A stretch of 64,000 bases of DNA from the NCBI RefSeq assembly GCF_030028105.1, contig NC_092376.1, forward strand, positions 77,920,935 through 77,984,934, in the 5' to 3' direction. Made by a program: the position numbers and the translations under genes. Below are positions 33,901-64,000 of the stretch, in pieces. This DNA comes from Mobula birostris. Its lineage: Eukaryota. The notes below the pieces were generated by a model. That model was not told the DNA's origin, ran no database searches, and saw nothing but the letters and a program-made list of their open reading frames with translations. How positions within the stretch are numbered: the first letter of the stretch is position 1; every line of letters starts with the position of its first letter.

Positions 33901-33984
33901 TCCAGTGTCAACCAAAATGCGGTGTCCCGACTGCTTGTCCCAGACGTACAGGAGGCTGTCCTGATGGCCAGCCACCGTAGCCAT
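30965..33984 (-). pseudogene. pol: Gypsy pol (PR-RT-RH-IN) with stops and frameshifts
   Basis: [62 protein letters not shown]. Confidence 0.93.
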
Positions 33985-34688
33985 CAGCAGCGGCTGGCCC
34001 TGGGGTTTCCCGGGAATTTGCAGGGCGGCCTACAGCATCAGGCCTCTGTGCCCCACCGCTGGTGGTAGAAGCACCATTGTTCGTTGGGCTCCTCACTCCC
34101 GTCGCCGGGTTTTGTAGGCTCTGCTGCCGGGCCTGGTCTGGTCTGTCGTTGGGTACGCGGCTTGGTGATCTGTGCGACGGATGCCCCTCTCTCTTTCCTG
34201 GCATTCCACAGCACATCTGCTTGGGCCACCACCTCCCGGGGGTCGCTGAAACCTGCGTCGGACAGCAGCAGGCATATGTCCTCGGGCAGTTGCTCTAGGA
34301 ACGTCTGCTCGAACATGAGGCAGGGTTTGTGTCCTTCAGCCAGGGCCAGCATTTCGTTCATTAATGCTGACGGTGGCCTGTCTCCCAAACCATCCAGGTG
34401 CATTAAGTGGCGTGCTCGTTCACACCGTGAGAGTCCAAAAGTCCTTATGAGCAGGGCTTTGAATGCTGTGTACTTGCCGTCCTCCGGGGGTGACTGTATA
34501 AACTCCTCAACTTGTGCAGCTGTCTCCTGGTCGAGGGAGCTCAGCACGTAGTAGTAGCGAGTGGACTCCGAGGTTATCTGCCGAATGTGGAATTGAGCTT
34601 CTGCTTGTTCGAACCATAAATGGGGTCGCAGCGTCCAGAAGCTTGGCAGTTTTAATGAAACTGTGTGAACAGATGCCGCGTCAGTCAT
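33983..34688 (-). pseudogene. gag: Gypsy gag (premature stop at 34038)
   Basis: VSLKLPSFW..PHLWFEQAEAQF..LGDRPPSALM..WCFYHQRWG; GGGAAAC slippery site at 34005-34011. Confidence 0.85.
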
Positions 34689-40240: not shown

Positions 40241-40308
40241 GAGGAACACGTTCCCAGAAAGCAGCCAGGGAACCCCCGAAAGCACAAAGCCTTATTCCGG
40301 ATGGACTG

Positions 40309-43300
40309 GTGGGACCCCGTTCCAGCGTGTCCCTACGGATAGAGGGAGTCTTTGCAAAAGCCATCCTTGACACAGGATCGCAGGTTACCTTACTGTACCG
40401 GTCGTTCTACAACAAATATCTGAAGCATTTGCCAGTAACCCCGTTCAATGCACTGGAGATTTGGGGCACAAGTGACGGTGATTACCTGTACGATGGGTAC
40501 CTGTCAGTGAGATTGGAATTCTCGGAGGGAAATGTGGGAGTGTCGGAAGCCCTTGAGACGTTGGTGTTGGTTTGTCCGGACCCGGTGGAAACCGGTGGCG
40601 CTGCCCTGCTAGTGGGGACTAACTCCCCTCTGGTGCGACGGCTCTTGGGAGCCTGTAAGAAGGCAGCGGGGGAGAACTTTCTGGAGACCCTCTCGGTACA
40701 CCCAGTGTTTCGAGCGGTGTACGAAGGAGTGGGTGACCCCCAGGAGCTGGATCCTGAGTGCAAACGAGGGACGGTGTGGTGTACTCAGGCGAGGCCTAAG
40801 GTGATACGGCCAGGGGAGGTGGCATTAGTGATGGGGACCCCCAGATTCCCCGGAGTACTGGCGGGCGAGGCCCTGCTAGTAGACGCCCCAGACGACCTGG
40901 AAGGGGAGTCCCAGTTCCCGGCTGGGGCGCTGGTGAGACCTGAATTGCAGAGGCCCTCAGCTGTACAGGCACGGCAGATAGGGGTGATGGTAAGGAACAT
41001 AACGGAGAGGGAGATCACCTTTAAGCGCGGGATGCCGCTTGCGCATTTGTTCCCGGTTACAGTGATGTCTAGCGCTCCCATGAGACCCACTGGAGGAAAA
41101 CTATTGGAGAACGGGGGGCTGACCGAGGAGGCCTTTAATTTTAAAGACTCCCCTGTACCGCCGGAGTATAAGAGCAGGGTGGTGGAGAAGATGCTGAAGC
41201 TAGGGGATGTCTTTTCTCAGGGCGAGTTTGATGTGGGATGTTCCAAGAGCACTCGGCACACTATCCGGGTGACAAATGACACCCCGTTTAGAGAAAGGCC
41301 GCGGCGGTTGGCCCCAGCAGATGTGGAAGATGCACGGCAGTTGAAGGATGCAGGGATTATCGCGGAGTCCCGGAGCCCCTATGCGTCCCCCATAGTGGTG
41401 GAAAGGTAGGAACATGGGAAGGTACGCATGTGCGTGGACTACAGGGCTCTGAACCGGCGCACTGTTCCCGACCAATATACGGTCCCAAGGGTGGAAGACG
41501 CATTGGCCTGTTTGAGTGGGGCGCGGTGGTTTAGCGTATTGGATTTGCGGAGTGGGTATTACCAGATTCCGATGAGTGAGGCCGATAAAGAGAAGGCGGC
41601 CTTTATCTGCCCCCTGGGATTTTTCTAGTTCGAACGAATGCCCCAAGGCATATCGGGGGCCCCAGCCACCTTCCAGCGGCTCATGGAGAGGACAGAGGGG
41701 GATATGAACCTGCTGGAGGTATTGGTGTACCTGGACGACCTGATAGGGTTTGGATCTACGTTGGAGGAACATGAGGAGCGGCTGCTGAAGGTGCTGAGTC
41801 GGCTGAAGGAAGAAGGGTTAATACTTTCCCTGGATAAATGTCAGTTCTGTAAAACGTCGGTCAGCTATGTCGGGCACATAATCTCGCGAAATGGAGAGGC
41901 CACTGATCCGGCTAAGATAGCTGCAGTAACCACCTGGCCGAGACCCCAGAAGGTGAGCGCCTTACGCTCGTTTTGGGGGTTTTGCGGATATTACCGGCGA
42001 TTCGTGAAAGGATATGCGAAAATGAGTCACCCATTGAACCAGTTGTTGTGTGGTTATCCACCTGTGAGGAGGAAGAGGAAGGGAGACCGAGGGCCGGAGG
42101 AAGGAGGATATTTGAACCCGGGGGAGCCTTTTGGATCGAGGTGGGATGCTCAATGTGAAGAGGCGTTCCAATCTCTAAAAAGGGCGCCGACACAGGCCCC
42201 GGTGTTGGCTTTTGCTGATCCCCGGAAGCCGTATGTTCTACACACTGATGCCAGTAACGAGGGTCTGGGGGCTGCCCTGTACCAGGAACAGGGCAACGGA
42301 TTGAGGCCGGTGGAGTTTGTCAGCCGGAGCTTGTCGCCATCTGAGAGAAACTATCCCACTCACAAGCTGCAGTTCTTGGCGTTGAAATGGGCGGTGGTGG
42401 ACAAGTTGAGTGACTATCTATACAGGGCCCAGTTTGAGGTGAGAACTGACAACAACCCCCTCACTTATATCCTGACCTCGGCGAAGCTGGATGCTCCTGG
42501 GCACCGGTGGTTAGCGGCCTTGTCTGCCTATGAGTTCAGCCTGAAGTACTGGCCGGGGAGTCGGAACATCGATGCAGATGCCCTGTCTCGTCGGGCGCAC
42601 GACGAGTCGGGCACGGCTGAGGAGTAGAAGAGTGTCCCTGCCCCGGGAGTGAAGGCCATGTGTCAGGTTGGGAGCGACGGGGAAGCAGGAGCCCCGATGT
42701 GGCCGGTTCGGGCAATGGATCAAACGGGGGTTGACGATGACGCGCTACCCACTGTTAACTGTAATTTCACTGCTCTGAGGAACAGGCAGCTGCTGGAGTT
42801 GAGCACCCAGCAAGTGGGGGCGGGTCAGCGTGATGACCCGAGCATTGGCACTATCTGGTACGTGGTTAGCCAGGGTGATGTGGCCCAGGTGGAGAAGGCG
42901 AAGCACGCCTCCGTTCCCCTACTACTGAAGGAGTGGCCCCGGTTGAAGCTGAAGAACCACGTCTTGTACCGCGTCACGTCGCCCCCGGACCACCCCCGGC
43001 GCTGGCAGCTGGTCATGCCTGAGAAGTATCGGAAGACTGTGCTCCAGGCACTACATGATGATTCCAGGCACTTGGGGGTAGAAAAGACCCATGGATTACT
43101 CAATGACCGGTTTGACTGGCCCCGGATAAGGAGGGAGGTGGAAGAATACTGTAAGATCTGTAGTCGTTGCATCAGGAGGAAGACCTTGCCTGCGCAGGCG
43201 GCTCCGTTGTCCCAGTTGCAGAGTGCGGGACCCATGGACCTGGTGGGTATGGATTTCCTGTCTATTGATTCAGACACCAGCAGCACCGCCAATGTCTTGG

Positions 43301-44658
43301 TCATCACGTATCACTACACTAGATATGCGCAGGCTTTTTCTACTAAGGACCAGAAAGCGACTACAGTGGCGAAGGTGTTATGGGAGAAGTGCTTTGTTCA
43401 TTATGGCCTTCCCCGGCGGATCCATAGTGATCAGGGACGGGACTTCGAGAGCAGGCTTCTCCGTGAATTACCGGGTATGCTTGGGGTTGAGAAATCCAGA
43501 ACCACCCCCTATCACCCGCAGGGTGATCCTCAGCCCGAGAGGTTTAACCGGACCCTGCTGGACATGCTCGACACTTTGGAGATCGGACAGAAGAGTAAGT
43601 GGAGTCAGCACATCGGCCATTTGGTTCACTGTTACAATTGTACTCGCAATGACGCTACGCCCTATTATCTGTGTTCGGATGGGAAGCGAGGTTGCCCATT
43701 GATTTGTGTTTTGGGACTGAAGCGGGTGAAATACCTTCGAAGCCATATCTGAAGTACGTGTCCGATATGAGGAGAGAGTTGACAAGGGCGTACGAGTTGG
43801 CTGAGGCGGTAGCCACCAAGCAGAATCAGCGGAATAAGAAGAGGTATGATCAGAAAGTAAAGTTGGACCAGCGATTGCCGGGAGACCCAAGTCCTTATCC
43901 GGAATTTAGGACTACCTGGTAAACACAAGTTGGCGGACCGTTGGGCAGCCGCCCCCTATGTGGTGGAGAGTCAGATGCCGAATCTCCCTGTTTATCGGGT
44001 GAGACCCGAAGATGGGAAGGGGTCTGTCAAGGTACTCCATCGGAACCACCTGTTGCCTCTGGGTCGAGAGATGAAAGTAGACCCAGAGCCCGAATGGGAG
44101 TTTACGCCTAGTACGAGGACTCTGCGAGGGCGCGGGGCGAGGGAAGAGTCCGCTGCGAAAGAGACGGGGCCGGCCCCCACCTCGAGAAGGGATACGCCAT
44201 CGGAAGACGATGATTCGGACGCGTGGTCCCTGTTTCCGTTCGTTGATTCCCCGGTGCCGGGAGAAGAGGCTCCTGGCCCTTCCATCACTGAGTTAGGGGA
44301 GAGGAGGGAGGGTGTTGCAGAGCCGCCTGTATTACAGCCGGTATTGGGGGAGGAGAGGGTGGAGCCAGAACCTGAGGCAGAGGGCTCACAGGTGCCGAGG
44401 GGTCCCCGTGAGGGTGGTGTCCCGTGTGAGGGTCCGACAGGTAGGCCCGGGGTGTCTGAACAGGAAGAGTCAGCAGAGGAAGTACAGAGGTTTCAGAGGA
44501 GTAGGCACCTCCTGGAGAGGTTGACTTATACAGCGCCGGGAGAACAGGGTGTGATCTCTACAGCGCTGGGAAGTTATGTCACTGCTTTATGCACCTGGGT
44601 TGGGTTTTGTGTTTTGCAAGGAGCACTGGTGAACCCTGTTAACGTCATGAGGGCATGA
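40309..44658 (+). pseudogene. pol: Gypsy pol (PR, spacer domain, RT, RH, IN) with stops and frameshifts
   Basis: [94 protein letters not shown]. Confidence 0.93.
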
Positions 44659-45660: not shown

Positions 45661-46479
45661 GGTGTTTTTGCAAATGAGATCTCCCCCCCCCCCCCCCCCC
45701 CCCGCCACCCCATACTCAATGTCAGCCAAGAAGGATCTTGGTGCCTGTCGATAAGATCTGGCAATGAGGCATTCTGCAAGATGGATCTGGAAAGTCTGCT
45801 GAGGGGGAAACTCACAGCATCCTTCCCTTGCAAAGTCTGCAAGACCTCCTGTTGGATTTGTGGTCAAAGGTGTTGATCTGCAAGATCTTTTCCACAAAGG
45901 ACAAGTCGTGTCAATTTCCAGCTGATTGGGACATTGCTCATCAACAGGAATTACATGTATTGAAATGGTAAGGTCAGTTAAAGTAGTTTTGACACTTGTC
46001 AAGTACGGTGAGTCATCGTCAGTCCGGGACAGAAGAACACGTGAGGTGAGGGAGCTTGACAGTGAGAATGAGAATAAAAGACACCTTCAGAGCATTAAGT
46101 GTCGGTCACGCTATATGCAAATCTAATTCTGCAATAAGATAAGCTGCAAATACACACCACCATCCTTCGTAATAGCGGGGACTGATGGAACTTGGCATGT
46201 GGTGGTACTTGATGCCCACGTACACACACACACTCAGCCTGATGAAGCCACACATGGAGGTGATCTACAGTTTTGCTCTATTTGCAGCTTCGCTGTTAAA
46301 GGTTTATAGGCCTCCAGTTACCCGCATCAAATGTCGCCGGCAATCTCTTCACTACGTGTCACTTCAATGGGACCACCGTGTTTAAGGGAGTTATTTGCTC
46401 GCATGTGTTTTTTTTTAAATAAGTAAAACTCCACAACGACGAAGTACCAAGTAAATAGGCGTTTATTTAGACAGAAGCC

Positions 46480-47220
46480 CGCTCCTGTTTTCGCCACTAT
46501 TTTGGAAATGGCGATGGAAATGTACTTTGTGGCCTGTGCCTGTGCCTGCCCCCTCTCCCCCCTCCTCATACACACACAGCGTGGCGGGCCAGGCGCCTGT
46601 GACGCGAGAATGGGCTGGTGACAGCGGCCCCGGCCCCGGCCCCAGCCCCGGCCCCGGGCTCAGTTTTGCTCGAGATCCGCGTGGTTGAGGTTGTTTCCCG
46701 CCAGCTGGATCTGCGAGCGCCAGTGTCGAGTCATTTCGGGCTTCCCGAGTGCGGCTTGAGCCGCCATGTTCGCCGACCTACTTGATGTTTTTGGGTTGGG
46801 ATGGGAGGAGCCCCCGCCATCCACATGGTATGAGTTTTTTGGGCAGCGACGGGAGAACTCCCCGCCTGCCTCATGGTGGACCGTGTTTCCGAGGCCCAAA
46901 CAGCGCTCGGAAGATGTCTGCGAATGCGTCTTGCTGTTCCAGAGTAGCATTGCATACTTGGCGGGCGCCGCCTGCTTCCTCGCCGTGGTTTTCGTCTGTC
47001 TGGCCCTGTTCCGTTGCAGGAAGAGAAAGTGGTCGTCGGCGCCTCTGAGTGGAGACCGATCCCCGTCGCAAAGTGGCCAGGTACCTGTCGGGCCTCCTCT
47101 CGGCGTTAACAAACGTGCACATCTTGGGTTAAAGTTAGAGAGAAAACGCCGGAGATTCTTGTTAGTCACAGGGGGTGCTTGTGGTAGGAAAAACAGTTAA
47201 CGATCCGGGTCGGTAATCTT
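46480..47220. promoter_or_regulatory. CpG island, probable gene promoter
   Basis: The only CpG-rich stretch not attributable to a transposon. (GGCCCC)n at 46626-46656, CRE-like TGACGCG at 46600, and GCCGCCATGTT at 46760-46770 (both a Kozak context and a YY1 consensus). Confidence 0.75.
46766..47080 (+). CDS. Putative first coding exon with a single transmembrane helix
   Basis: GCCGCC-ATG start; 105 codons to a phase-0 CAG|GTACCT donor; hydrophobic SIAYLAGAACFLAVVFVCLALF followed by basic RCRKRK. Confidence 0.5.
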
Positions 47221-49779
47221 CAAGCAGAACTGGAACAAGGAAAAGAGCGTAGATTTTAAATTATGGTGCGAACACTCTCTCTATGTGTGCCTGATGGAAT
47301 GCCAAGCCTGAGGTTTTTTTGTTGGTGCGCTGTGTTAGCGATGAATGAGTGGCAGTCATAACTAATCTGTCTGAAGGAGAACAGATAAGGGGAGATAAGC
47401 AAAAGTTGTAGAAAACAAACTGCTGGAACTTGATGGTGAGCAGGGAAAAGGCTGGTGAAGATGAAAGAATGAGATGAAGTGGCGGAGAGAGTAGTCCATT
47501 GTGAATACTGAAAACCGAAACTGATTTAATGTTTAAGCTTCAAGACGCTTTGTAAGGTGAAGTGTTAACCTTCTCTCTTTCCACTGATGGCTGACCTGCT
47601 CAGAGTCTCCAGCTGGTTTTTAATTTTGACTTTTTTTTAGATTTTCAACATTGAAAAAAAATCATGTTTGAGAGCCCTGTCAACAATGGTAGAGTGGGAG
47701 CAAAGTAACTGAAAACCTTATAGTAAAGAATAAGCTAATTAAAATGATTCTATCATTTATTAGCTGAGATTTAGAACATGACAATGTTATGTTAGAACTA
47801 CTCATTACACATACATACAGCTGAGGACTGGGTAACCAGAATTACTCAATGTCACAGTAAAGGATACTGCCCAGAGGAAACGTTTACCAGGATATTGTCT
47901 GGGAAATTGTAACTATGAGGAAAGATGGATACATTGGGATTTTAACCTGTGAGTGAACACTGAAAATGGTTTGCTTACCACTTTAGTGAATTTGGAGGTA
48001 AAGGTGTGGTGTTGACTTTCTAATGCTTTGAGATGCCTTGTGTGGGTAATGCAGTTCTCTGAAGCATTTAGCAAATCAGGAGCCTGTGGAAATAAAGGGC
48101 CATTGACTATATTGATATAAAATTAGCTGATGACAGAAAGAATATAACAATAGTGCCATTTTCCAAAGAAAGTATACAGCAAATACATCTGGGCGTTACA
48201 ATCTAGCTCACCTGCGCCTGGTTACGTAGGCATAGTTTCAAAGTTCCTCAGTAATATAAATTATAAATGATGCACAGGACAATTACAGACCTCTAGAGGG
48301 CATAGTTTCTAGAATGGTCCTAATGGATTACAAAGAAATAAATGCAATTTCATGGTTCAAGTTAGGAAGGGTTCCCTTTATATTGGCAGTATTGTGTTCA
48401 TTGGAGTCCAAATGAAGGCTAGGTAGTTTAGCATGGGTTGTAAGGAATACACTGAACCTTTACTGACAGAGGCCTATGTTTTCTTGTGTGGTGAAGGAGA
48501 ATCTGGATGTTGATGTGCCAGGATTGAAGAGGATGAAGCACATAAAGTGGTAGCAACCAAGGAGGAGGGGTGAAGGAGTGGGGTGGATTGGATGGTTTCC
48601 AAATAATCATCTTTAAACCATTGACTTTAATGTTACTTCAATCATATATTAAACACAGAGTCTGTTAGAAATTAATATTCTAATGCTTCAGAATTTGAAG
48701 CAGCTTTATTTGCTCCTATACCGTCAAAATTGTTTGCATATATGTACAGTATTCTTCATTTGAAGCAGTACCTGTATCATGATTGTCAAAAAACCCGTCA
48801 CCTATTGCTTGCACAATTATTCTTATTTTTGCCTTGTGGACACTGGAAAAGTCCCTGAATTTACAACCCAGAATGGTTTTGTCAGTACTCGTTCATATAA
48901 GGCAGCTCACTGTTTAGATTGAAACCAGGTCCTTGAATTAGCTTGAGGTTCCAAAAGATTCAACTGGATGTTGTTCAAAGTCGTATTGTGCCATCCATGC
49001 TTGTTTCTTTGGAAACTATTTTGTGTCCACGTAATGGGAAAAGGCGAAAGTATTTGTAGATCTGAAAGGTCATTTAAGCTTTTTTTCTGACATACCTGCC
49101 ATCCATGTCATTGCAAATTGGAAATTGTGACATTTAAGTTAGAGAATGGGGAAATGATAGGACCTGAAAAGGGGAGGAAGAGTGAGTTTATGAGGGAAAT
49201 ACTAGGAGAAAGAAAAAAGTTATAGAAGCAAAGACAGTGATGGTCTTGGAATGGAGCAGGTGAAAAGGATTATTTAAGAGCTCTCCTCTTCTCCTCTGAA
49301 AACATTGATTATTATTTCTGTTGAGGGTTTGTGCTTTCATTTCAATGTACTGTAGTTTCCACTTCTGGGTTCCTGGATGTCAGAATTAGTAGTGAAGGTT
49401 TCTTATTTAATTTTACTCTTCAAAATACAGTTCCCAAGCAGTGGGAAACTTGTTGCCATTCATATGTGGAATGGAAAATTTGATGTTGCTATGCAGATTA
49501 AATCTAGTTGTCAAGGAATCGAGTCCTTAAATTCAGGTGCATGTATCAGATATGACATTTGGCTGCCATATGGAAAGCATATAAACTCATTTCTTTTAGG
49601 AAAGGCATGGAAACTTCTCGACCATTGCATGTACCTTCCACCTGATCTGTAGTTTCAAGATCTTCTTTGGATCACTAAGAGAAAATTCTGATATATTATT
49701 ACATGGCTGCTTTGGGTAAATTATAGCAGAATGATTGATAAGACAACAGTCCCTAATTTCTCTGCTGATGTCAAATGGC

Positions 49780-50095
49780 CTTTTTTGACAATATTGCCCA
49801 CCTTCAGAGGTTACTGATGTTACAGATGGACATTGGCATTTTCAGTGAAAAGATTAGAAACTGTCTTGAATGACCGTTCATACAGTCATATAGAATGGAA
49901 ACAGACCCTTTGGTCCATATGGTCCATGCCCACCAAGATTCCCACCACGCTAGTCTCATTTGTCCGCGTTTGGCCCTTGTCCTTTATCACGTAAAGAAAG
50001 CAGCAGAGACAGGATTTATCCTTTACATTTTGAGAAACCAACAGAGGTACTCATTTCACCTTCACTTAACCGGATTCCATCACAGGTAATTTTTA
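49780..50095 (+). pseudogene. Degenerate upstream part of the giant repeat exon, split by a CR1 3' fragment
   Basis: Removing 49878-49983 gives the in-frame MDIGIFSEKIRNCLE*PLSRKESSRDRIYPLHFEKPTEVLISPSLNRIPSQ, alignable to EINFSDEICRDLNIHITRKKVQQNWGLPLHIQNTENAFIPPTSKLVLSK. Confidence 0.55.
49878..49983 (-). mobile_element. Short CR1 3'-end fragment
   Basis: TCATACAGTCATATAG tail plus GGAAACAGACCCTTTGG..TTTGGCCC, typical of CR1 3' UTRs. Confidence 0.55.
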
Positions 50096-53000
50096 AAAAC
50101 GCAGACACGAGGAAATCTGCAGATACTGGAAATACAAGCAACACACACAAAAAATGCTGGTGAACGCAGCAGGCCGGGCAGCGTCTATAGGAAGAGGTAC
50201 AGTCGATGTTTCGGGCCGGGACCCAGCCTCTGGGTCCAACATATAATTCTCTGTAACTTCCGCCACCTCCAACGGGATCCCACCACCAAGCATATCTTTC
50301 CCTCCCCCCCCCCCTTTCTGCTTTCTGCAGGGATTGCTCCCTACGCGACTCCCTTGTCCATTCATTCACCCCATCCCTTCCCACCGATCTCCCTCCCGGC
50401 ACTTATCCTTGTAAGTGGAGCAAGTGCTACACATGCCCTTACACTTCCTCCCTCACCACCATTCAGGGCCCCAGACAGCCCTTCCAGGTGAGGCGATACT
50501 TCACCTGTGAGTCGGCTGGGGTGATATACTGTGTCCGGTACTCCTGGTGCGGCCTTCTATATATTGGCGAGACCCGACGCAGGCTGGGAGACTGTTTTGC
50601 TGAACACCTATGCTCCGTCTGCCAGAGAAAGCAGGATCTCCCAGTGGCCACACATTTTAATTCCACGCCCCATTCCCATTCTGATATGTCTATCCACGGC
50701 CTCCTCTACTGTCAAGATGAAGCCACGCTCAGGTTGGAGGAACAACACCTTATATTCCGTCTGGGTAGCCTCCAACCTGATGGCATGAATATTGACTTCT
50801 CTAACTTCCGTTAATGCCCCTCCTCCCCTTCACACCCCATCCCTTATTTATTTATTTTATATATTTTTTATTTTTCCCCCTTTTTTCTGTCTCTCTTTTT
50901 TTTAAACTCTGTCCCTCTCACAATAACTCCTTGTCTGCTGTCCATACTCCAGGCCCCCCTCCCCCCCTTCTCTTTCTCCCCAGGCTTCCCGTCCCATGAT
51001 CCTCTCCCTTCTCTAGCTCTTAGATCCACCCCTCCCCTCCTGTCTTCTCCTATCATTTCAGATTTCCCCCTCCCCCTCCCACTTTCAAATTTCTTACTAT
51101 CTCTTCTTTCAGTTAGTCCTGACATAGAACATAGAACATAGAATAGTACAGCACATTACAGGCCCTTCAGCCCACAATGTTGTGCAAACCCTCAAACCCT
51201 GCCTCCCATATAACCCCCCCCACCTTAAATTCCTCCATATACCTGTCTAGTAGTCTCTTAAACTTCACGAGTGTATCTGCCTCCACCACTGACTCAGGCA
51301 GTGCATTCCATGCACCAACCACTCTCTGAGTAAAAAACCTTCCTCTAATATCCCCCTTGAACTTCCCACCTTAAAGCCACGTCCTCTTGTATTGAGCAGT
51401 GGTGCCCTGGGGAAGAGGCGCTGGCTATCCACTCTATCTATTCCTCTTATTATCTTGTACACCTCTATCATGTCTCCTCTCATCCTCCTTCTCTCCAAAG
51501 AGTAAAGCCCTAGCTCCCTTAATCTCTGATCATAATGCATACTTTCTAAACCAGGCAGCATCCTGGTAAATCTCCTCTGTACCCTTTCCAATGCTTCCAC
51601 GTCCTTCCTATAGTGAGATGACCAGAACTGGACACAGTACTCCAATTGTGGCCTAATCAGAGTTTTATAGAGCTGCATCATTACATCGCGACTCTTAAAC
51701 TCTATCCCTCGACTTATAAAAGCTAACACCCCATAAGCGTTCTTAACTACCCTATCTACCTGTGAGGCAACTTTCAGGGATCTATGGACATGTACCCGGA
51801 GATCCCTCTGCTCCTCCACACTACCGAGTATCCTGCCATTTACTTTGTACTCTGCCTTGGAGTTTGTCCTTCCAAAGTGTACCACCTCACACTTCTCCGG
51901 GTTGAACTCCATCTGCCACTTCTCAGCCCACTTCTGCATCCTATCAATGTCTCTCTGCAATCTTCGACAATCCTCTACACTATCCACAACACTACCAACC
52001 TTTGTGTCGTCTGCAAACTTGCCAACCCACCCTTCTACCCCCACATCCAGGTCGTTAATAAAAATCAAGAAAAGTAGAGGTCCCAGAACAGATCCTTGTG
52101 GGACACCACTAGTCACAATCCTCCAATCTGAATGTACTCCCTCCAACATGACCCTCTGCCTTCTGCAGGCAAGCCAATTCTGAATCCACCTGGCCAAACT
52201 TCCCTGGATCCCATGCCTCCTGACTTTCTGAATAAGCCTACCGTGTGGAACCTTGTCAAATGCCTTACTAAAATCCATATAGATCACATCCACTACACTA
52301 CCCTCATCTATATGCCTGGTCACCTCCTCAAAGAACTCTATCAGGCTTGTTAGACACAATCTGCCCTTCACAAAGCCATGCTGACTATGCCTGATCAGAC
52401 CATGATTCTCTAAATGCCCATAGATCCTATCTCTGAGAATCTTTTCCAACAGCTTTCCCACCACAGTCGTAAGGCTCACTGGTCTATAATTACCCGGGCT
52501 ATCCCTACTATCTTTTTTGAACAAGGGGACAACATTTGCCTCCCTCCAATCCTCCAGTACCATTCCCCTGGACAACGAGGACATAAAGATCCTAGCCAGA
52601 GGCTCAGTAATCTCCTCCGTCGCCTCGTGGAGCAGCTGGGGAATATTTCGTCAGGCCCTGGGGACTTATCTGTCCTAATGTATTTTAACAACTCCAACAC
52701 CTCCTCTCCCTTAATATCAACATGCTCCAGAACATCAACCTCACTCATATTGCCCTCACCATCAAAAAGTTCCCTCTCATTTGTGAATACCGAAGAGAAG
52801 TATTCATTGAGGACCTCGCTCATTTCCACAGCCTCCAGGCACATCTTCCCACCTTTATCTCTAATCGGTCCTACCTTCACTCCTGTCATCCTTTTTTCCT
52901 TCACATAATTGAAGAACGCCTTGGGGTTTTCCTTTACCGTACTCACCAAGGCCTTCTCGTGCCCCCTGCTTGCTCTCCTCAGCCCCTTCTTAAGCTCCTG

Positions 53001-53877
53001 CAAGAGATCTCTAAACATCGACCACATGTCCATAGTACATTTTCCTGCAAAAACATCATCCCAATTCACACCCACAAGTTCTAGCCTTATAGCCTCATAA
53101 TTTGCCCTTCCCCAACTAAAAATTTTCCTGTCCTCTCTGATTCTTTCCTTTTCCATGATAATGCTAAAGGCCAGGGAGCGGTGGTCACTGTCCCCCAGAT
53201 GCTCACCCACTGAGAGATCTGTGACCTGACCCGGTTCATTACCTAGTACTAGATCTAGTATGGCATTCCCCCGGTCGTCCTGTCCACATACTGTGACAGG
53301 AATCCGTCCTGGACATACTTAACAAACTCTGCCCCATCTAAACCTTTGGAACTAATCAGGTGCCAATCAATATTAGGGAAGTTAAAGTCACCCATGATAA
53401 CAACCCTGTTATTTTTGCACCTTTCCAAAATCTGCCTCCCAATCTGCTCCTCTGTATCTCTGCTGCTACTAGGGGGCCTATAGAATACCCCCAGTAGAGT
53501 AACTGCTCCCTTCCTGTTCCTGACTTCCACCCATACTGACTCAAAAGAGGATCCTGCTACATTACCCACCCTTTCTGTAGCTGTAATAGTATCCTTGACC
53601 AGTAATGCTACCCCTCCTCCCCTTTTTCCCGCCTCTCTATCCCTTTTCAAGCACTGAAATCCAGGAATATTGAGAATCCATTCTTGCCCTGGTGCCAGCC
53701 AAGTCTGTGTATTGGCCACTACATCATAATTCCATGTATGTATCCAAGCTCTCAGTTCATCACCTTTGTTCCTGATGCTTCTTGATGACGAAGGGTCCTG
53801 GCCCGAAACTTCGACTGTACCTCTTCCTATAGAAGCTGTCTGGCCTGCTGCGTTCACCAGCATTTTTTGTGTGTGTG
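50096..53877 (+). mobile_element. Penelope-like element (inverted 5' pLTR piece, RT end, GIY-YIG EN, pLTR) with a nested CR1
   Basis: 50488-50814 CESAGVIYCVRYSWCGLLYIGETRRRLGDCFAEH..HFN..EEQHLIFRLGSLQPDGMN; 50096-50224 is an inverted copy of the terminal repeat; 14-bp TSD ACAGGTAATTTTTA at 50082-50095 and 53878-53891. Confidence 0.9.
51124..53785 (-). mobile_element. Relatively young CR1 LINE (EN and RT, internally deleted) nested in Penelope
   Basis: 439-aa RT ORF 51265-52584 (NYRPVSLT, MDFSKAFD, GVPQGSVLGP, KFADD); EN in 53255-53863; (ATAGAAC)n tail at 51124; TGAC duplicated at 51120-51123 and 53786-53789. Confidence 0.93.
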
Positions 53878-53891
53878 ACAGGTAATTTTTA

Positions 53892-56800
53892 CTGCGTTAT
53901 TCCCACTGAATTACCATTCATAACTGTCGTGCATAAAGTTCTTGAAGGAAATGTGAAGAGAAAAATTACGGGTAATTAACTAGATATTAAGTAACTTTCA
54001 GATGATCTTGTTCATGCACCAGGGCATTTAGAGATAAAAATAACACATTTTTGAAGAACACTGACACACCACATCTTTCTAAAATCATCCCTTATCAGGA
54101 AGAAGATCTGAGAAGAAGTGGAAAAATCTCTCTTTTGTGATGGTGGTATTAGGAATGAAGAAATAAAGAAATTAGGAGAATTATCTGTTATGACATTCAA
54201 GACAAAAGAGGAGATTCAATTAATTATAGGCTTAAAGCAATGTATGGAAATTGAAAAAGATTGTTTCCCAGATGTGATCATGGGATCATGTGAAAAATGC
54301 CATTGTGATGTACCAAAAAAACATTTATCCCAGTTGATCAGAGCTGGGAACGAATATAAAATGACAAAACCATTGTATACACCTCTTATGGAAAGTGATG
54401 CTGTTGATCGTTTAGAGACTAACTTAAGGCAAAAACTTAGTCCAAGGTTGTGGGGATCTTCAAATTTGTTAGAAAAGTCAATGATACCTGAAGTGCCACC
54501 TGCACCTCCACCTATCAAAGGAAGAGTAGCTACAGTAGAGTCTGTTGGTTTGTTAACAAATTTCATTGGAAAAAAAGTCAGAAACCATTTGGAAAGGCAC
54601 ATCACAAAAAGAAAACTTGAACAAAACTGGGATTTACCCACAGAAATTCAGATATCTAGAGATTTCTTTTTGCCATCTGGCCCAAAATTGATGCATTCTC
54701 AACTACAGTCCAAGAATTATGCGCACTTCATTATTGTTCAAACGCAAACATTGTTCATAAGTAATGAGCAAAAGAGAATACTGGAAGGCAATTTAATGAA
54801 GAAGGTAATCAATTATAAATATGGTCTCCTTCCAAATGTTGTTCAGATGTCTTCAAGTAATTTTATTGAATCTTATCCAAAAGAAGATGCTTTTGCACCT
54901 TCAGAGATCATAAAAGGAAGAAAGATGTTTACTGGTAATTTGGATTATTACAAAAAGACAATACATCAAACTCAAACATTATCTCTACGTTCTAGTAATA
55001 ATAATGAGAAGAGCACTGAAATGGACAAAGTATTTAAAGATAAACTAGAAATGTGCTTAAGAAAACAGTGCTTAGAGATTAAGATGACTTGTTTTCCAGA
55101 AATATTAAAAGAGATGTACAAAGTCACATATCATTTGTAATCACAGAGGAGATTACTAAAATTAATTGCATCAGATAGAGGTTATAAGAAACCATATTAT
55201 GTACCTTTAATGAGCATCGATTGGTGTTTATTTTTCAGCACAAACAGATTAATCATCTCTGGGGAACTGCAGCTCCATATGATACATCTTTAGGAATACT
55301 AAGTTGTTCAAGACCACCTCGACTTCCAGCAGTCAAAGTGAGTGGAGCTCAAGTAGAGCCTGTAAGTAGAGAAATTAATACTTCTGATGAAATTTGTAGA
55401 GATTTAAACATTCATATTACACGGAAGAAAGTTCAACAGAACTGGGGCTTGCCATTGCATATTCAAAACACTGAAAATGCCTTTATTCCACCAACTTCAA
55501 AACTAGTGTTATCCAAGTTATGCCCCCAGCCTAATTTTGAGATTCTGTTTTCTCAGCCTGAACCGACATTCCGTGATGAAGAACATGAAAGAAGACTGGA
55601 GTTCTATGTAAAGAAAAAGATTGTGAATAATCGTTGTAGACTTCCTAAGGTCATTCTATCTTCGGCATGTAATTTTATGCCTCCGGCCCCATCAATGAAG
55701 GATCACTTTGAGGAGTGTGAAATAATTAAAAACAACCAAATCATAGGCAATACTTCTTTTAAGAAGACAACCAATAAAGATAAAGGTAAATCTGATATTT
55801 CCTTGATAAAACAGCATGTGGAAATTCACAAAGACACTTTGCCAGAAAAGGTGTTGAAGTCCTATGAAATCACATCAAAGAGATCATTTCCACAGCCTCT
55901 TCTAGCTAGAAATAGATTTAAAAAACCAAGACCATTGTATCTATCAGTTTTTGAAGAATATATTGTACATCGATTGGAGTTTAATTTTAAACACAAACAG
56001 ATTAATCATCTCTGGGGTGCAGCAACTCCATATGATACATCTTTAGGAATGCGAATTTGTTCAATACCACCTCGACTTCCAGCAGTCAAAGTGAGTGGAG
56101 CTCAAGTAGAGCCTGTAAGTAGAGAAATTAATTTTTATGATGAAATTTGTAGAGATTTAAACATTCATATTACACGGAAGAAAGTTCAACAAAACTGGGG
56201 CTTGCCATTGCATATTCAAAACTCTGAAAATGCATTTATTCCACCAGCTCCAAAACTAGTGTTATCCAAGTTATGCCCCCAGCCTAATTTTGAGATTCGA
56301 TCTGGTCAGTCTGAACGAATATTCCTTCGTGAAGAAGCTAAAGGAAGACTGAAGTTCTATGTAAAGAAAAAGATTGTAAATAATCGTTGTAGACTTCCTA
56401 AGGTCATTCTATCATCGTCATGTAATTTTATGCCTCCGGCCCCATCAATGAAGGATCACTTTGAGGAGTGTGAAATAATTAAAAACAACCAAATCATAGG
56501 CGATACTTCTGTTACGAAGAAAAGCAACAAAGGTAAAGGTAAAGATAAAGAAATGAATTTTTTTGATAAAATTTGTAGAGATTTAAACATTCATATTACA
56601 CGGAAGAAACTTCAACAAAACTGGGGCTTGCCATTGCATATTCAAAACTCTGAAAATGCATTTATTCCACCAGCTCCAAAACTAGTGTTATCCAAGTTAT
56701 GCCCCCAGCCTAATTTTGAGATTCCATCTGGTCAGTCTGAACGAATATTCCTTCGTGAAGAAGCTAAAGGAAGACTGAAGTTCTATGCAAAGAAAAAGAT

Positions 56801-59800
56801 TGTAAAGAATCGTTGTAGACTTCCTAAGGTCATTCTATCATCGTCATGTAATTTTATGCCTCCAGCTCCATCAATGAAGGATCACTTTGAGGAGTGTGAA
56901 ATAATTAAAAACAACCAAATCATAGGCAATACTTCTTTTAAGAAGACAACCAATAAAGATAAAGGTAAATCTGATATTTCCTTGATAAAACAGCATGTAG
57001 AAATTCACAAAGACACTTTGCCAGAAAAGGTGATGAAGTCCTATAAAATCACATCAAAGAGATCATTTCCACAGCCTATTCTAGCTAGAAATAGATTTAA
57101 AAAACCAAGACCATTGTATCTATCATTTATTGAAGAATATATTGTACATCGATTGGAGTTTAATTTTAAACACAAACAGATTAATCATCTCTGGGGTGCA
57201 GCAACTCCATATGATACATCTTTAGGAATGCGAATTTGTTCAGTACCACCTCGACTTCCAGCAGTCAAAGTGAGTGGAGCTCAAGTAGAGCCTGTAAATA
57301 GAGAAATTAATTTTTCTGATGAAATTTGTAGAGATTTAAACATTCATATTACACGGAAGAAACTTCAACAAAACTGGGGCTTGCCATTGCATATTCAAAA
57401 CTCTGAAAATGCCTTTATTCCACCAGCTCCAGAACTAGTGTTATCCAAATTATGCCCCCAGCCTAATTTTGAGATTCGATCTGGTCAGTCTGAACGAATA
57501 TTCCTTCGTGAAGAAGCTAAAGGAAGACTGAAGTTCTATGTAAAGAAAAAGATTGTAAATAATCGTTGTAGACTTCCTAAGGTCATTCTATCATCGTCAT
57601 GTAATGTTATGCCTCCGGCCCCATCAATGAAGGATCACTTTGAGGAGTGTGAAATAATTAAAAACAACCAAATCATAGGCAATACTTCTGTTACGAAGAA
57701 AAGCAACAAAGGTAAAGGTAAAGATAAAGAAATGAATTTTTCTGATAAAATTTGTAGACATTCAAACATTCATATTACACGGAAGAAACGTCAACAAAAC
57801 TGGGGCTTGCCATTGCATATTCAAAACTCTGAAAATGCCTTTATTCCACCAGCTCCAAAACTAGTGTTATCCAAGTTATGCCCCCAGTCTAATTTTGAGA
57901 TTCTGTTTTCTCAGTCTGAACCGACATTCCGTGATGAAGAACATGAAAGAAGACTGAAGTTCTATGTAAAGAAAAAGATTGTGAATAATCGTTGTAGACT
58001 TCCTAAGGTCATTCTATCTTCGGCATGTAATTTTATGCCTCTGGCCCCATCAATGAAGGATCACTTTGAGGAGTGTGAAATAATTAAAAACAACCAAATC
58101 ATAGGCAATGCTTCTTTTAAGAAGACAACCAATAAAGATAAAGGTAAATCTGATATTTCCTTGATAAAACAGCATGTAGAAATTCACAAAGACACTTTGC
58201 CGGAAAAGGTGATGAAGTCCTATGAAATCACATCAAAGAGATCATTTCCACAGCCTATTCTAGCTAGAAATAGATTTAAAAAACCAAGACCATTGTATCT
58301 ATCATTTATTGAAGAATATATTGTACATCGATTGGAGTTTAATTTTAAACACAGACAGATTAATCATCTCTGGGGTGCAGCAACTCCATATGATATATCT
58401 TTAGGAATGCGAATTTGTTCAGTACCACCTCGACTTCCAGCAGTCAAAGTGAGTGGAGCTCAAGTAGAGCCTGTAAGTAGAGAAATTAATTTTTTTGATG
58501 AAATTTGTAGAGATTTAAACATTCATATTACACGGAAGAAACTTCAACAAAACTGGGGCTTGCCATTGCATATTCAAAACTCTGAAAATGCCTTTATTCC
58601 ACCAGCTCCAGAACTAGTGTTATCCAAGTTATGCCCCCAGCCTAATTTTGAGATTCGATCTGGTCAGTCTGAACGAATATTCCTTCGTGAAGAAGCTAAA
58701 GGAAGACTGAAGTTCTATGCAAAGAAAAAGATTGTAAATAATCGTTGTAGACTTCCTAAGGTCATTCTATCATCGTCATGTAATGTTATGCCTCCGGCTC
58801 CATCAATGAAGGATCACTTTGAGGAGTGTGAAATAATTAAAAACAAACAAATCATAGGCGATACTTCTGTTACGAAGAAAAGCAACAAAGGTAAAGGTAA
58901 AGATAAAGAAATGAATTTTTCTGATAAAATTTGTAGACATTTAAACATTCATATTACACGGAAGAAACTTCAACAAAACTAGGGCTTGCCATTGCATATT
59001 CAAAACTCTGAAAATGGATTTATTTCACCAGCTCCAAAACTAGTGTTATTCAAGTTATACCCCCAGTCTAATTTTGAGATTCAGTTTTCTCAGTCTAAAC
59101 CGACATTCCGTGATGAAGAACATGAAAGAAGACTGGAGTTCTATGTAAAGAAAAAGATTGTGAATAATCGTTGTAGACTTCCTAAGGTCACTCTTATCAT
59201 CGTCATGTAATTTTATGCCTCCGGCCCCATCAATGAAGGATCACTTTGAGGAGTGTGAAATAATTAAAAACAACCAAATCATAGGCGATACTTCTTTTAA
59301 GAAGACAACCAATAAAGATAAAGGTAAATCTGATACTTCCTTGATAAAACAGCATGTAGAAATTCACAAAGACACTTTGCCAGAAAAGGTGATGAAGTCC
59401 TATGAAATCACATCAAAGAGATCATTTCCACAGCCTATTCTAGCTAGAAATAGATTTAAAAAACCAAGACCATTGTATCTATCATTTATTGAAGAATATA
59501 TTGTACATCGATTGGAGTTTAATTTTAAACACAAACAGATTAATCATCTCTGGGGTGCAGCAACTCCATATGATACATCTTTAGGAATGCGAATTTGTTC
59601 AGTACCCCCTCGACTTCCAGCAGTCAAAGTGAGTGGAGCTCAAGTAGAGCCTGTAAGTAGAGAAATTAATTTTTCTGATGAAATTTGTAGAGATTTAAAT
59701 ATTCATATTACACGGAAGAAACTTCAACAAAACTGGGGCTTGCCATTGCATATTCAGAACTCTGAAAATGCCTTTATTCCACCAGCTCCAAAACTAGTGT

Positions 59801-62800
59801 TATCCAAGTTATGCCCCCAGCCTAATTTTGAGATTCGATCTGGTCAGTCTGAACGAATATTCCTTCGTGAAGAAGCTAAAGGAAGACTGAAGTTCTATGC
59901 AAAGAAAAAGATTGTAAATAATCGTTGTAGACTTCCTAAGGTCATTCTATCATCGTCATGTAATTTTATGCTTCCGGCTCCATCAATGAAGGATCACTTT
60001 GAGGAGTGTGAAATAATTAAAAACAACCAAATCATAGGCAATACTTCTGTTACGAAGAAAAGCAACAAAGGTAAAGGTAAAGATAAAGAAATGAATTTTT
60101 CTGATAAAATTTGTAGAGATTTAAACATTCATATTACACGGAAGAAAATTTCAACAAAACTGGGGCTTGCCATTGCATATTCAAAACTCTGAAAATGCCT
60201 TTATTCCTCCAGCTCCAAAACTAGTGTTATCCAAGTTATGCCCCCAGTCTAATTTTGAGATTCAGTTTTCTCAGTCTGAACCGACATTCCGTGATGAAGA
60301 ACATGAAAGAAGACTGGAGTTCTATGTAAAGAAAAAGATTGTGAATAATCGTTGGGGACTTCCTAAGGTCATTCTATCTTCGGCATGTAATTTTATGCCT
60401 CCGGCCCCATCAATGAAGGATCACTTTGAGGAGTGTGAAATAATTAAAAACAACCAAATCATAGGCAATACTTCTTTTAGGAAGACAACCAATAAAGATA
60501 AAGGTAAATCTGATATTTTCTTGATAAAACAGCATGTAGAAATTCACCAAGACACTCTGCCAGAAAAGGTGATGAAGTCCTATGAAATCACATCAAAGAG
60601 ATCATTTCCACAGCCTCTTCTAGCTAGAAATAGATTTAAAAAACCAAGACCATTGTATCTATCATTTATTGAAGAATATATTGTACATCGATTGGAGTTT
60701 AATTTTAAACACAAACAGATTAATCATCTCTGGGGTGCAGCAACTCCATATGATGCATCTTTAGGAATGCGAATTTGTTCAGTACCACCTCGACTTCCAG
60801 CAGTCAAAGTGAGTGGAGCTCAAGTAGAGCCTGTAAGTAGAGAAATTAATTTTTCTGATGAAATTTGTAGAGATTTAAACATTCATATTACACTGAAGAA
60901 ACTTCAACAAAACTGGGGCTTGCCATTGCATATTCAAAACTCTGAAAATGCCTTTATTCCACCAGCTCCAGAACTAGTGTTATCCAAGTTATGCCCCCAG
61001 CCTAATTTTGAGATTCGATCTGGTCAGTCTGAACGAATATTCCTTCGTGAAGAAGCTAAAGGAAGACTGAAGTTCTATGCAAAGAAAAAGATTGTAAATA
61101 ATCGTTGTAGACTTCCTAAGGTCATTCTATCATCGTCATGTAATGTTATGCCTCCGGCCCCATCAATGAAGGATCACTTTGAGGAGTGTGAAATAATTAA
61201 AAACAAACAAATCATAGGCGATACTTCTGTTACGAAGAAAAGCAACAAAGGTAAAGGTAAAGATAAAGAAATGAATTTTTCTGATAAAATTTGTAGACAT
61301 TTAAACATTCATATTACACGGAAGAAACTTCAACAAAACTAGGGCTTGCCATTGCATATTCAAAACACTGAAAATGCCTTTATTCCACCAGCTCCAAAAC
61401 TAGTGTTATTCAAGTTATGCCCCCAGCCTAATTTTGAGATTCAGTTTTCTCAGTCTAAACCGACATTCCGTGATGAAGAACATGAAAGAAGACTGGAGTT
61501 CTATGTAAAGAAAAAGATTGTAAATAATCGTTGTAGACTTCCTAAGGTCACTCTTATCATCGTCATGTAATTTTATGCCTCCGGCTCCATCAATGAAGGA
61601 TCACTTTGAGGAGTGTGAAATAATTAAAAACAACCAAATCATAGGCGATACTTCTTTTAAGAAGACAACCAATAAAGATAAAGGTAAATCTGATATTTCC
61701 TTGATAAAACAGCATGTAGAAATTCACAAAGACACTTTGCCAGAAAAGGTGATGAAGTCCTATGAAATCACATCAAAGAGATCATTTCCACAGCCTATTC
61801 TAGCTAGAAATAGATTTAAAAAACCAAGACCATTGTATCTATCATTTATTGAAGAATATATTGTACATCGATTGGAGTTTAATTTTAAACACAAACAGAT
61901 TAATCATCTCTGGGGTGCAGCAACTCCATATGATACATCTTTAGGAATGCGAATTTGTTCAGTACCCCCTCGACTTCCAGCAGTCAAAGTGAGTGGAGCT
62001 CAAGTAGAGCCTGTAAGTAGAGAAATTAATATTTCTGATGAAATTTGTAGAGATTTAAACATTCATATTACACGGAAGAAACTTCAACAAAACTGGGGCT
62101 TGCCATTGCATATTCAAAACTCTGAAAATGCCTTTATTCCACCAGCTCCAAAACTAGTGTTATCCAAGTTATGCCCCCAGCCTAATTTTGAGATTCGATC
62201 TGGTCAGTCTGAACGAATATTCCTTCGTGAAGAAGCTAAAGGAAGACTGAAGTTCTATGCAAAGAAAAAGATTGTAAATAATCGTTGTAGACTTCCTAAG
62301 GTCATTCTATCATCGTCATGTAATGTTATGCCTCCGGCCCCATCAATGAAGGATCACTTTGAGGAGTGTGAAATAATTAAAAACAACCAAATCATAGGCG
62401 ATACTTCTGTTACGAAGAAAAGCAACAAAGGTAAAGGTAAAGATAAAGAAATGAATTTTTCTGATAAAATTTGTAGAGATTTAAACATTCATATTACACG
62501 GAAGAAAATTTCAACAAAACTGGGGCTTGCCATTGCATATTCAAAACTCTGAAAATGCCTTTATTCCTCCAGCTCCAAAACTAGAGTTATCCAAGTTATG
62601 CCCCCAGTCTAATTTTGAGATTTAGTTTTCTCAGTCTGAACCGACATTCCGTGATGAAGAACATGAAAGAAGACTGGAGTTCTATGTAAAGAAAAAGATT
62701 GTGAATAATCGTTGGGGACTTCCTAAGGTTATTCTATCTTCGGCATGTAATTTTATGCCTCCGGCCCCATCAATGAAGGATCACTTTGAGGAGTGTGAAA

Positions 62801-64000
62801 TAATTAAAAACAACCAAATCATAGGCAATACTTCTTTTAAGAAGACAACCAATAAAGATAAAGGTAAATCTGATATTTTCTTGATAAAACAGCATGTAGA
62901 AATTCACCAAGACACTCTGCCAGAAAAGGTGATGAAGTCCTATGAAATCACATCAAAGAGATCATTTCCACAGCCTATTCTAGCTAGAAATAGATTTAAA
63001 AAACCAAGACCATTGTATCTATCATTTATTGAAGAATATATTGTACATCGATTGGAGTTTAATTTTAAACACAAACAGATTAATCATCTCTGGGGTGCAG
63101 CAACTCCATATGATGCATCTTTAGGAATGCGAATTTGTTCAGTACCACCTCGACTTCCAGCAGTCAAAGTGAGTGGAGCTCAAGTAGAGCCTGTAAGTAG
63201 AGAAATTAATTTTTCTGATGAAATTTGTAGAGATTTAAACATTCATATTACACGGAAGAAACTTCAACAAAACTGGGGCTTGCCATTGCATATTCAAAAT
63301 TCTGAAAATGCATTTATTCCACCAGCTCCAAAACTAGTGTTATCCAAGTTATGCCCCCAGCCTAATTTTGAGATTCGATATGGTCAGTCTGAACGAATAT
63401 TCCTTCGTGAAGAAGCTAAAGGAAGACTGAAGTTCTATGTAAAGAAAAAGATTGTAAATAATCGTTGTAGACTTCCTAAGGTCATTCTATCATCGTCATG
63501 TAATTTTATGCCTCCGGCTCCATCAATGAAGGATCACTTTGAGGAGTGTGAAATAATTAAAAACAAACAAATCATAGGCGATACTTCTGTTACGAAGAAA
63601 AGCAACAAAGGTAAAGGTAAAGATGAAGAAATGAATTTTTCTGATAAAATTTGTAGACATTTAAACATTCATATTACATGGAAGAAAATTTCAACAAAAC
63701 TGGGGCTTGCCATTGCATATTCAAAACTCTGAAAATGCATTTATTCCACCAGCTCCAAAACTAGTGTTATTCAAGTTATGCCCCCAGCCGAATTTTGAGA
63801 TTCGATCTGGTCAGTCTGAACGAATATTCCTTCGTGAAGAAGCTAAAGGAAGACTGAAGTTCTATGCAAAGAAAAAGATTGTGAATAATCGTTGGGGACT
63901 TCCTAAGGTCATTCTATCGTCGGCATGTAATTTTATGCCTCCGGCTCCATCAATGAATGATCACTTTGAGGAGTGTGAAATAATTGAATACAACCAAATC
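53892..64000 (+). pseudogene. Giant repeat-coding exon, SPATA31/FAM205/CCDC168-like, disrupted; runs off the window
   Basis: ORFs 54118-55140 (340 aa), 55221-58982 (1253 aa) and later fragments. Recurrent motif LExHIxKKxxxxxWGLPxxIxxSxxxF.PPAP and LEMCLRKQCLEIKMTCFPEILKE resemble motifs I recall from SPATA31 and CCDC168. No transposon domains. Confidence 0.6.
55220..64000 (+). repeat. Tandem array, 1179/1180-bp unit (753/754 + 426 bp subunits), over 7 units, with a 2360-bp higher-order period
   Basis: The anchor AGA(G/C)ATT..AC/TATTCAT occurs at 55398, 56151, 56577, 57330, 57756, 58509, 58935, 59689, 60115, 60869, 61295, 62049, 62475, 63229 and 63655. Confidence 0.97.

Follow-up and report, generated by a model that had tools for sequence, protein, structure and literature searches.

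The locus examined here raises the question of whether the right-hand part (46480–64000) of a 64,000-nucleotide stretch of the Mobula birostris genome (contig NC_092376.1, positions 77,920,935 to 77,984,934 of the forward strand) carries an intact giant-exon gene of the SPATA31/CCDC168 type, as a first-pass annotation had proposed from the letters alone. The whole 64,000-nucleotide stretch is called the window, and positions refer to it unless a contig is named. Our analysis suggests, with a probability of roughly 0.75, that the locus is a broken duplicate of a SPATA31/FAM75-family gene in a CCDC168-type neighbourhood of a ray, and likely a pseudogene that died recently. This copy keeps exon 1, about 1.3 early repeat units and one unit amplified about 7.5 times, having lost the C-terminal domain together with most of the non-repeat region, and its product is likely nothing or a short stub. 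The features are collected in Table 1.

The Pfam profile FAM75 (PF14650, curated cut-off 24 bits) matched one 393-amino-acid (aa) unit of the array at 71.1 bits (E 1.5e-19) and the open frame in front of the array, W1 (54112–55137), at 40 bits (E 4.4e-10), both above the cut-off, with the fish units aligning to the central part of the profile only, at about positions 110–310 of 382. PF14650 is present in all 12 proteins found with the array unit, 11 of which have a species name and come from sharks, sturgeons, paddlefish, gar, coelacanth and turtle, one coelacanth model being named FAM205A-like, and databases already label entries from sharks, sturgeons, teleosts and a salamander as FAM75 or 'SPATA31 domain'. 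That the family reaches back to early jawed vertebrates, as had been put forward, holds, but databases already implied it, since these matches were already classed as PF14650 and the FAM205A-like name was already in use. A profile built from 11 ray unit sequences and searched against 1.84 billion sequences returned 223 representatives at E ≤ 0.001, and names were looked up for 30 of the 150 matches listed, 29 being named. These include relatives of 2,400 to 5,100 aa from skate (4,631 aa), catshark (5,132 aa), chimaera, coelacanth and sturgeon, and further proteins from Narcine, geckos, lizards, salamanders, a caecilian, a pigeon, a crane and two teleosts, as well as turtle and alligator proteins called 'proline-rich protein 30' and a turtle protein called FAM205A-like. 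Mammalian matches were Saimiri SPATA31D1-like (E 1.3e-11), Lepus SPATA31F1-like (E 1e-14) and Macrotis CCDC168 (E 6.5e-14), the last giving profile similarity to a named CCDC168 protein in one species, and the suggested homology to both SPATA31/FAM75 and CCDC168 is thereby borne out. No jawless or invertebrate species was seen among the 29 named of the 150 listed matches (223 in total), and a further profile search brought no proteins beyond those already found. DUF4599 (PF15371) was present in both mammalian SPATA31 proteins scanned and gave no match in the window pieces or in eight other proteins scanned, including the skate, Narcine, coelacanth, turtle and gecko models. Pfam matches to NifT, UCR_hinge, AGS_C and others were discarded as weak scores summed over repeats. 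Separately, an axolotl protein (P0037) that bears the name 'nuclear receptor-binding protein isoform X1' was scored as FAM75-type units, shows by eye no obvious kinase-like part, and is probably a misnamed model at the NRBP locus.

The units are made of modules whose anchors recur every 61–65 residues in the order A, B, C and D, followed by a longer linker, in agreement with the basic module of about 60–70 aa noticed earlier, and one A-B-C-D unit takes about 290 aa in sharks, sturgeon, gar, coelacanth and turtle. Profile–profile probabilities were 99.5% for C-D, 98.6% for B-C, 98.1% for B-D, 95.2% for A-C and 92.5% for A-D, with A-B at only 4.3%, and judged by these comparisons the four module types, each of ~62–65 aa, are related to one another. 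Strict ABCD runs were observed in skate and chimaera, while two mammalian SPATA31 proteins hold 4 and 6 scattered modules and Macrotis CCDC168 holds 4. The intact relatives (skate, electric ray and coelacanth models) consist of a short N-terminal segment, one transmembrane (TM) helix, then a non-repeat region and numerous A-B-C-D units of ~290 aa, about 12 of them in skate and coelacanth, and the skate model ends with a C-terminal domain common to sharks and to a paralog on contig C2446 of the manta genome. Such intact relatives in sharks and rays, which the earlier reading had suggested looking for, thus exist as single-frame models in skate, catshark and Narcine and as the 2,803-codon paralog. 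Within open frames, homogenisation of units was also observed: the sturgeon protein P0013 has 18 equal-scoring 271-aa units, the Narcine protein P0016 has six 294-aa units that are 99–100% identical, and P0001 likewise shows recent homogenisation of one unit. Because homogenisation occurred independently in these proteins (sturgeons, Narcine), unit amplification is recurrent in the family.

Exon 1 lies in a CpG island whose observed/expected (o/e) CpG ratio of 0.86 stands against 0.45 window-wide, and its ATG at 46766 has the start context GCCGCCATG. The 15 residues after the helix carry a net charge of +4, against 0 before it, and an orientation with the N-terminus outside and the C-terminus inside is predicted from the positive-inside rule. 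By BLASTP, exon 1 matched the N-terminus of the Narcine protein P0016 (3,764 aa; E 7e-7), with no significant match to skate P0015, and exon 1 alone as a protein query against longer proteins gave no match. A profile of five homologous N-termini, picked by eye, placed exon 1 first among 1,223 six-frame window pieces (E 9.8e-9, the runner-up being at 0.054). Exon 1 and its donor also have DNA homologues at two other loci of the same genome, and a TM exon is joined to the repeat exon in the predicted models of Narcine, skate, coelacanth and P0065, a database protein discussed with the paralog below. Judged by these similarities, including the ray and coelacanth N-terminal matches, this short first exon with its single predicted N-terminal TM segment is part of a SPATA31/FAM75-type gene. 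Three runs of uncertain type, available as contigs only, carry no weight either way: in the window they do not cover exon 1 and no exon 1 joint is among the joints listed, and at the paralog they likewise leave exon 1 uncovered and gave no joints. The CpG-island exon with one TM helix and a basic segment, and the same-strand repeat block with its quoted motifs, were thus recovered as first described, and the exon is now assigned to the gene family. That the array could be a transposon-derived, virus-derived or satellite repeat, with the TM exon unrelated to it, would suit a region rich in retroelements and an exon whose direct protein search came back empty. However, the FAM75 score lies above the curated cut-off, the named matches are vertebrate genes, and exon 1 shares homology with the N-termini of full-length models and was co-duplicated with the repeat exon, so that we give this explanation practically no credence; the transposon or viral match that the first-pass annotation had named as a danger did not appear.

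Units U1–U6 of the array are mutually 96.0–99.0% identical, with alternate units closest (U3/U5 98.7%, U4/U6 99.0%), giving a higher-order period of 2,360 bp. The unit contains a 426-bp internal duplication and a shortened A module, and the array crosses the window edge, ending at what corresponds to 64498, with a short degenerate remnant behind it. The coding block had been put at over 10 kb, but the stop-to-stop frames along it measure 342, 1,264, 342, 405, 342 and 368 aa. Within 54112–64000 there are ten lesions, namely four stops (55138, 58980, 61340 and 62623) and six frameshifts (about 55215, 59190, 60145, 61550, 62505 and 63685), and the window copy therefore lacks the one very long open last coding exon of the family. 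Since the same stop and insertions recur at one 2,360-bp period, they were copied by duplication, and this periodicity disfavours random sequencing error. Substitutions among the array copies comprise 21 synonymous and 71 non-synonymous alleles, where the expected synonymous share is 0.20–0.27, with no synonymous excess (p 0.80); the array units diverge neutrally. An intact giant gene whose breaks are assembly errors in a difficult tandem repeat would find a parallel in the near-identical tandem units within open frames of relatives (Narcine P0016, sturgeon P0013). We nevertheless regard it as very improbable, as exactly one higher-order period separates the repeats of the same stop and of the same insertions, a retroelement with its target-site duplication interrupts the exon, whole units and both non-repeat regions are missing, and the substitutions lack a synonymous excess. 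The intact giant-exon gene of the earlier proposal is thus not upheld.

W1 is 49% identical to the skate unit skate_978, with which it falls in a four-row clade with 100% support. The best-matching skate units are 978 for W1, 1245 for the A module that follows it and 1830 for the array, and because the matches jump from 1245 to 1830, the break near 55215 is taken as a unit-skipping, out-of-frame deletion. A mini-intron across 55138–55240 was rejected, the nearest GT-AG pair giving the wrong frame and the break mapping to that deletion. The stretch from exon 1 to W1 gave no significant match to the non-repeat region of skate (about aa 200–800). The tblastn pieces in 49820–50095 correspond weakly to skate aa ~821–875 (E 0.07–0.6), and the register resumes after a 3.8-kb insertion that is flanked by a 14-bp target-site duplication (50082 and 53878) and carries minus-strand RVT_1 (51268–52650) and endonuclease (53258–53896) domains. 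Beyond it, 53892–54130 matches skate aa ~879–1000 (E 2.8e-10), with catshark matched in a second frame, and is broken by stops at 53977 and 53992 and by frame changes near 54030 and 54130. The candidate acceptor at 54099 has the best pyrimidine tract among the YAG (Y, pyrimidine) sites in 53892–55100, and 18 of the 82 YAG sites in 47200–54200 score as high. Splicing there would yield 13 codons and then a stop because of the frame change near 54130. The C-terminal domain, of which the paralog has one, was not found in the window or in 29 kb downstream.

Table 1. Features of the window, with positions, strand and the evidence or details for each.
Feature	Position	Strand	Details and basis
Fragmented endogenous-retrovirus-like element	12569-18254	+	Reverse transcriptase (RT) 14165-14848; murine leukaemia virus (MLV)-type integrase C-terminal domain 15875-16762
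GC-rich long terminal repeat (LTR)-retrotransposon-like element	32311-34805	-	RT and RNase H, several frames
GC-rich LTR-retrotransposon-like element	40204-44658	+	RT, RNase H and integrase, several frames
CpG island covering promoter and first exon	46451-47200		GC 0.59; CpG o/e 0.86
Exon 1, coding part	46766-47080	+	105 open codons; translation; phase-0 GT donor after 47080
Predicted single TM helix, then RCRKRKW	46955-47011	+	Kyte-Doolittle 19-mer 2.55
Degenerate remnant of old giant exon, 5' of insertion	49820-50095	+	Collinearity, not score
Composite retroelement insertion (3.8 kb) in old coding exon	50096-53891	-	Target-site duplication; RVT_1
Coding remnant, broken, matching the end of skate unit 760 and the linker	53892-54130	+	tblastn; translations
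Candidate secondary splice acceptor	54072-54099	+	First exon base 54099, phase 0; pyrimidine tract; inferred
W1, 342-codon open frame	54112-55140	+	One A-B-C-D unit and next A module; ends TAA 55138; FAM75, tree
Out-of-frame internal deletion junction (about 55215)	55141-55240	+	Frame change; best-match units
Longest open frame, 1,264 aa	55188-58982	+	Not in W1 frame; FAM75 E 4.1e-51, 175 bits
Tandem array, 1179-1180-bp unit (393 aa), ~7.5 copies	55215-64000	+	Modules A-B-C-D-C-D; unit alignment, FAM75
Duplicated lesions	58980-63690	+	TAG 58980 and 61340; +1 at 59190 and 61550; +1 at 60145, 62505 and 63685; alignment
Unduplicated TAG in array	62623	+	Alignment

These observations bear on a further explanation, in which the window copy would still make a shortened membrane protein from exon 1 and W1, a TM anchor with one A-B-C-D unit (about 420–450 aa), the array being 3' untranslated. 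The intact exon 1 and CpG island, the 342 open codons of W1 between broken flanks, and the existence of short family members such as a 450-aa Alosa protein with TM and B-C-D modules would all accord with it, as would the apparent use of a new internal acceptor by the C2446 paralog and a possible assembly slip near 54130, where the frame changes in a short T run. Yet in the assembly acceptor 54099 leads to a stop after 13 codons, the pyrimidine tracts of the in-frame alternatives (54202 and 54418) are weak, and few lesions would be expected anyway in a recently dead exon 1 and W1 at the 1–4% divergence of the array. On balance we hold a shortened working protein to be unlikely, and the broken duplicate remains our preferred account.

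Comparison with other copies was based on a tree of 71 fish units (quick search, with Shimodaira–Hasegawa-like approximate likelihood ratio test support only), from which five near-identical Narcine units and short pieces were left out. The units cluster by position across catshark, skate and the manta genome and can be assigned one to one, and because the manta genome units group with skate or Narcine units they are batoid, which fits the cartilaginous-fish origin guessed in the earlier reading. The array unit is 56–57% identical to skate_1830 and 53–54% identical to paralog unit 859, with similar branch lengths, which puts the window and paralog units roughly as distant from one another as each is from skate. 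The paralog (C2446:154003–166747) is the only other strong FAM75 locus found, this count being a lower bound, and it has the long open last exon, with a frame of 2,803 codons at C2446:158339–166747. It has a TM exon of 48 codons and a CpG island 4.2 kb upstream of the frame with homologous exon, donor and intron start; it is without the N-terminal non-repeat region, and its first unit duplicates a later one (ratio of non-synonymous to synonymous substitution rates, dN/dS, 0.27 between both). The database protein P0065, a model of unknown basis and not reads, is identical to the two parts of the paralog at 262/294 and 41/48 positions (89%), and its join of exon 1 with the acceptor C2446:158414 is the very one that the DNA had predicted. 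The paralog thus seems to be spliced at a new acceptor within the former giant exon and is likely the living gene. A third, heavily degenerate copy was seen at C8:44.588–44.618 Mb. Its exon 1, on the plus strand, contains three TAG stops, and the downstream region is present as two partial minus-strand copies, so that an inversion lies between them. For the window copy, we infer a duplication of the family gene after the skate–ray split, which may have been followed by a long working life as a shortened gene, possibly through the new acceptor at 54099, and then by frame loss, neutral expansion by unequal crossing-over and recent death.

The surroundings of the locus were examined by family-level searches on C8, where a TEX30/KANSL3-type hydrolase was found at 77.40 Mb, Glyco_transf_90 at 77.43–77.46 Mb, Methyltransf_16 genes at 77.68 and 77.73 Mb and TPPII at 77.79 Mb, exon 1 being at 77.968 Mb. 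TPP2-, METTL21C/E-, POGLUT2- and TEX30-like genes therefore lie within 0.6 Mb of the locus. The position of CCDC168 in the TPP2-METTL21C-TEX30-POGLUT2 block is thus matched at block level, the exact slot differing or not being fixed: human CCDC168 lies between METTL21C and TEX30, and the ray gene lies instead beyond TPP2. Neither the 110 kb alongside the TEX30-like gene nor the 160 kb upstream of the window yielded a family copy. [quoted passage not shown] Synteny with human 2p23 and 9p13 was rejected, as markers of these regions map elsewhere than C8 (BRE and TMEM214, neighbours of human PRR30, to C3 and C4, DCTN3 to C4). Cattle carry BIVM, ERCC5, METTL21C, POGLUT2, TEX30 and TPP2 at BTA12 78.89–79.09 Mb (PMC10629031) and CCDC168 at BTA12 78.97 Mb (PMC11077762), chicken carries the same block (PMC10172703), and METTL21C, TPP2 and CCDC168 are called a cluster (PMC6179948). 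Elsewhere in the window, apart from the retroelements in Table 1, small tandem repeats with 68-, 23- and 12-bp periods were seen at 25968–26513 in a 248-codon frame with no Pfam match at 1e-5.

AlphaFold gave one paralog unit (44 aligned rows) a mean predicted local distance difference test (pLDDT) score of 70.5 and a predicted template modelling (pTM) score of 0.24, with four helix (19–20 aa)–turn–helix (9–11 aa) elements joined by extended linkers, suggesting locally confident elements and no compact domain. For the 393-aa unit, the single-sequence model reached a pLDDT of 32.8. A sequence search of solved structures returned no relative (best E 0.4), and Foldseek with the unit model against PDB gave 0 matches. 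Mouse Spata31 is a reported interactor of syntaxin and of beta-actin, and knockout animals are infertile (PMC5338094); FAM205A is located at the acrosome and has a helix predicted at 11–31, and Fam205a1 knockouts are infertile (PMC13423385); CCDC168 is spermatid-specific (PMC9933954, PMC7436996) and an azoospermia candidate (PMC9933954). By analogy, the family may have a role in fish sperm. A living member, here the C2446 paralog, would be a single-pass membrane protein with a long cytoplasmic tail, predicted to be a string of helix-turn-helix modules on flexible proline-rich linkers, and by analogy with mouse Spata31 and Fam205a1 this tail would act as a multivalent tether from the spermatid acrosomal membrane to the underlying cytoskeleton.

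Several points weigh against the account given above, its proposed function and neighbourhood included. Exon 1 is intact together with its ATG context, donor and CpG island, and W1 is lesion-free for ~1 kb, while the single-copy lesions near 54130, 55138 and 55215 rest on the assembly and not on reads. The dN/dS between the window and paralog units is 0.71–0.77 with intervals reaching 1.0–1.15, by which long-term constraint is weakly shown, and a value near 1 is less telling because this sperm family is fast-evolving. The paralog, on a contig of 645 kb, shows rearrangements of its own, the neighbour genes on C8 are family-level matches, a second TPP2 lies on C12, and the suggested sperm tether leans on a low-pTM model and on analogy.

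As a broken duplicate the window copy is ordinary, and it gives a clear case of an exon that became a neutral tandem array and whose lesions were copied in the process. It is a new broken member of a known family, and the points worth following are the ordered four-module unit and the CCDC168 neighbourhood. The family offers a clean, many-copy module of ~63 aa with conserved residues that is testable for binding, and the fish proteins tie CCDC168 to SPATA31 through profile and neighbourhood. In the literature, SPATA31 is treated within mammals (PMC5338094, PMC6920530, PMC13423385), and a preprint (10.1101/2020.02.14.947036) describes an interspersed SPATA31 motif repeat of 2–6 units in human paralogs, which may or may not be the same module. 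No paper on non-mammalian SPATA31 or CCDC168, or on the relationship between the two, was found in a search that covered subscription journals thinly, and the supplementary family trees of PMC5338094 and PMC13423385 may bear on the matter.

Compared with known systems, the closest are the cartilaginous-fish giants Leucoraja LOC129698430 (4,631 aa), Scyliorhinus LOC119977343 (5,132 aa), Narcine XP_069746829 (3,764 aa), Callorhinchus LOC103177415 (2,405 aa) and Rhincodon LOC109915445, unnamed in RefSeq, which have the same A-B-C-D units, a TM N-terminus in the skate and Narcine models, and FAM75 where scanned; they are single long frames, whereas the window copy is broken. We lean slightly towards the view that the SPATA31/FAM205A, CCDC168 and PRR30-named genes all go back to a single giant, TM-anchored gene that the ancestor of jawed vertebrates had in the TPP2–TEX30 block, with an ordered A-B-C-D tail whose copy identity has been kept between sharks and rays, FAM75 being a worn-down C-D piece and the module likely serving as a binding site, present many times over, for a partner on the acrosome side, for instance actin or syntaxin. 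If FAM75 is such a worn-down piece, the fish proteins would therefore expose the working module of mammalian male-fertility proteins. Mammalian SPATA31 (A/C/D/E) and SPATA31F1/FAM205A likewise have the FAM75 domain, and mammalian SPATA31 likewise has an N-terminal hydrophobic segment and a long last exon (PMC5338094, PMC13423385) in a duplicating family with pseudogene copies (PMC5338094). However, the SPATA31D1-like and SPATA31F1-like proteins hold 4–6 scattered modules and DUF4599, whereas the fish proteins hold dozens in strict order with no DUF4599 match. The Macrotis CCDC168 protein covers positions 7–222 of the ray-unit profile, nearly the whole unit, though CCDC168 is far less similar to the ray gene than the fish homologues are, and the window pieces gave no CCDC168-named Pfam match; the 200-kb cattle region that holds CCDC168 with TPP2, METTL21C, TEX30 and POGLUT2 has its counterpart in the like genes flanking the ray locus. 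The PRR30-named turtle and alligator proteins have complete A-B-C-D units, but one or two only.

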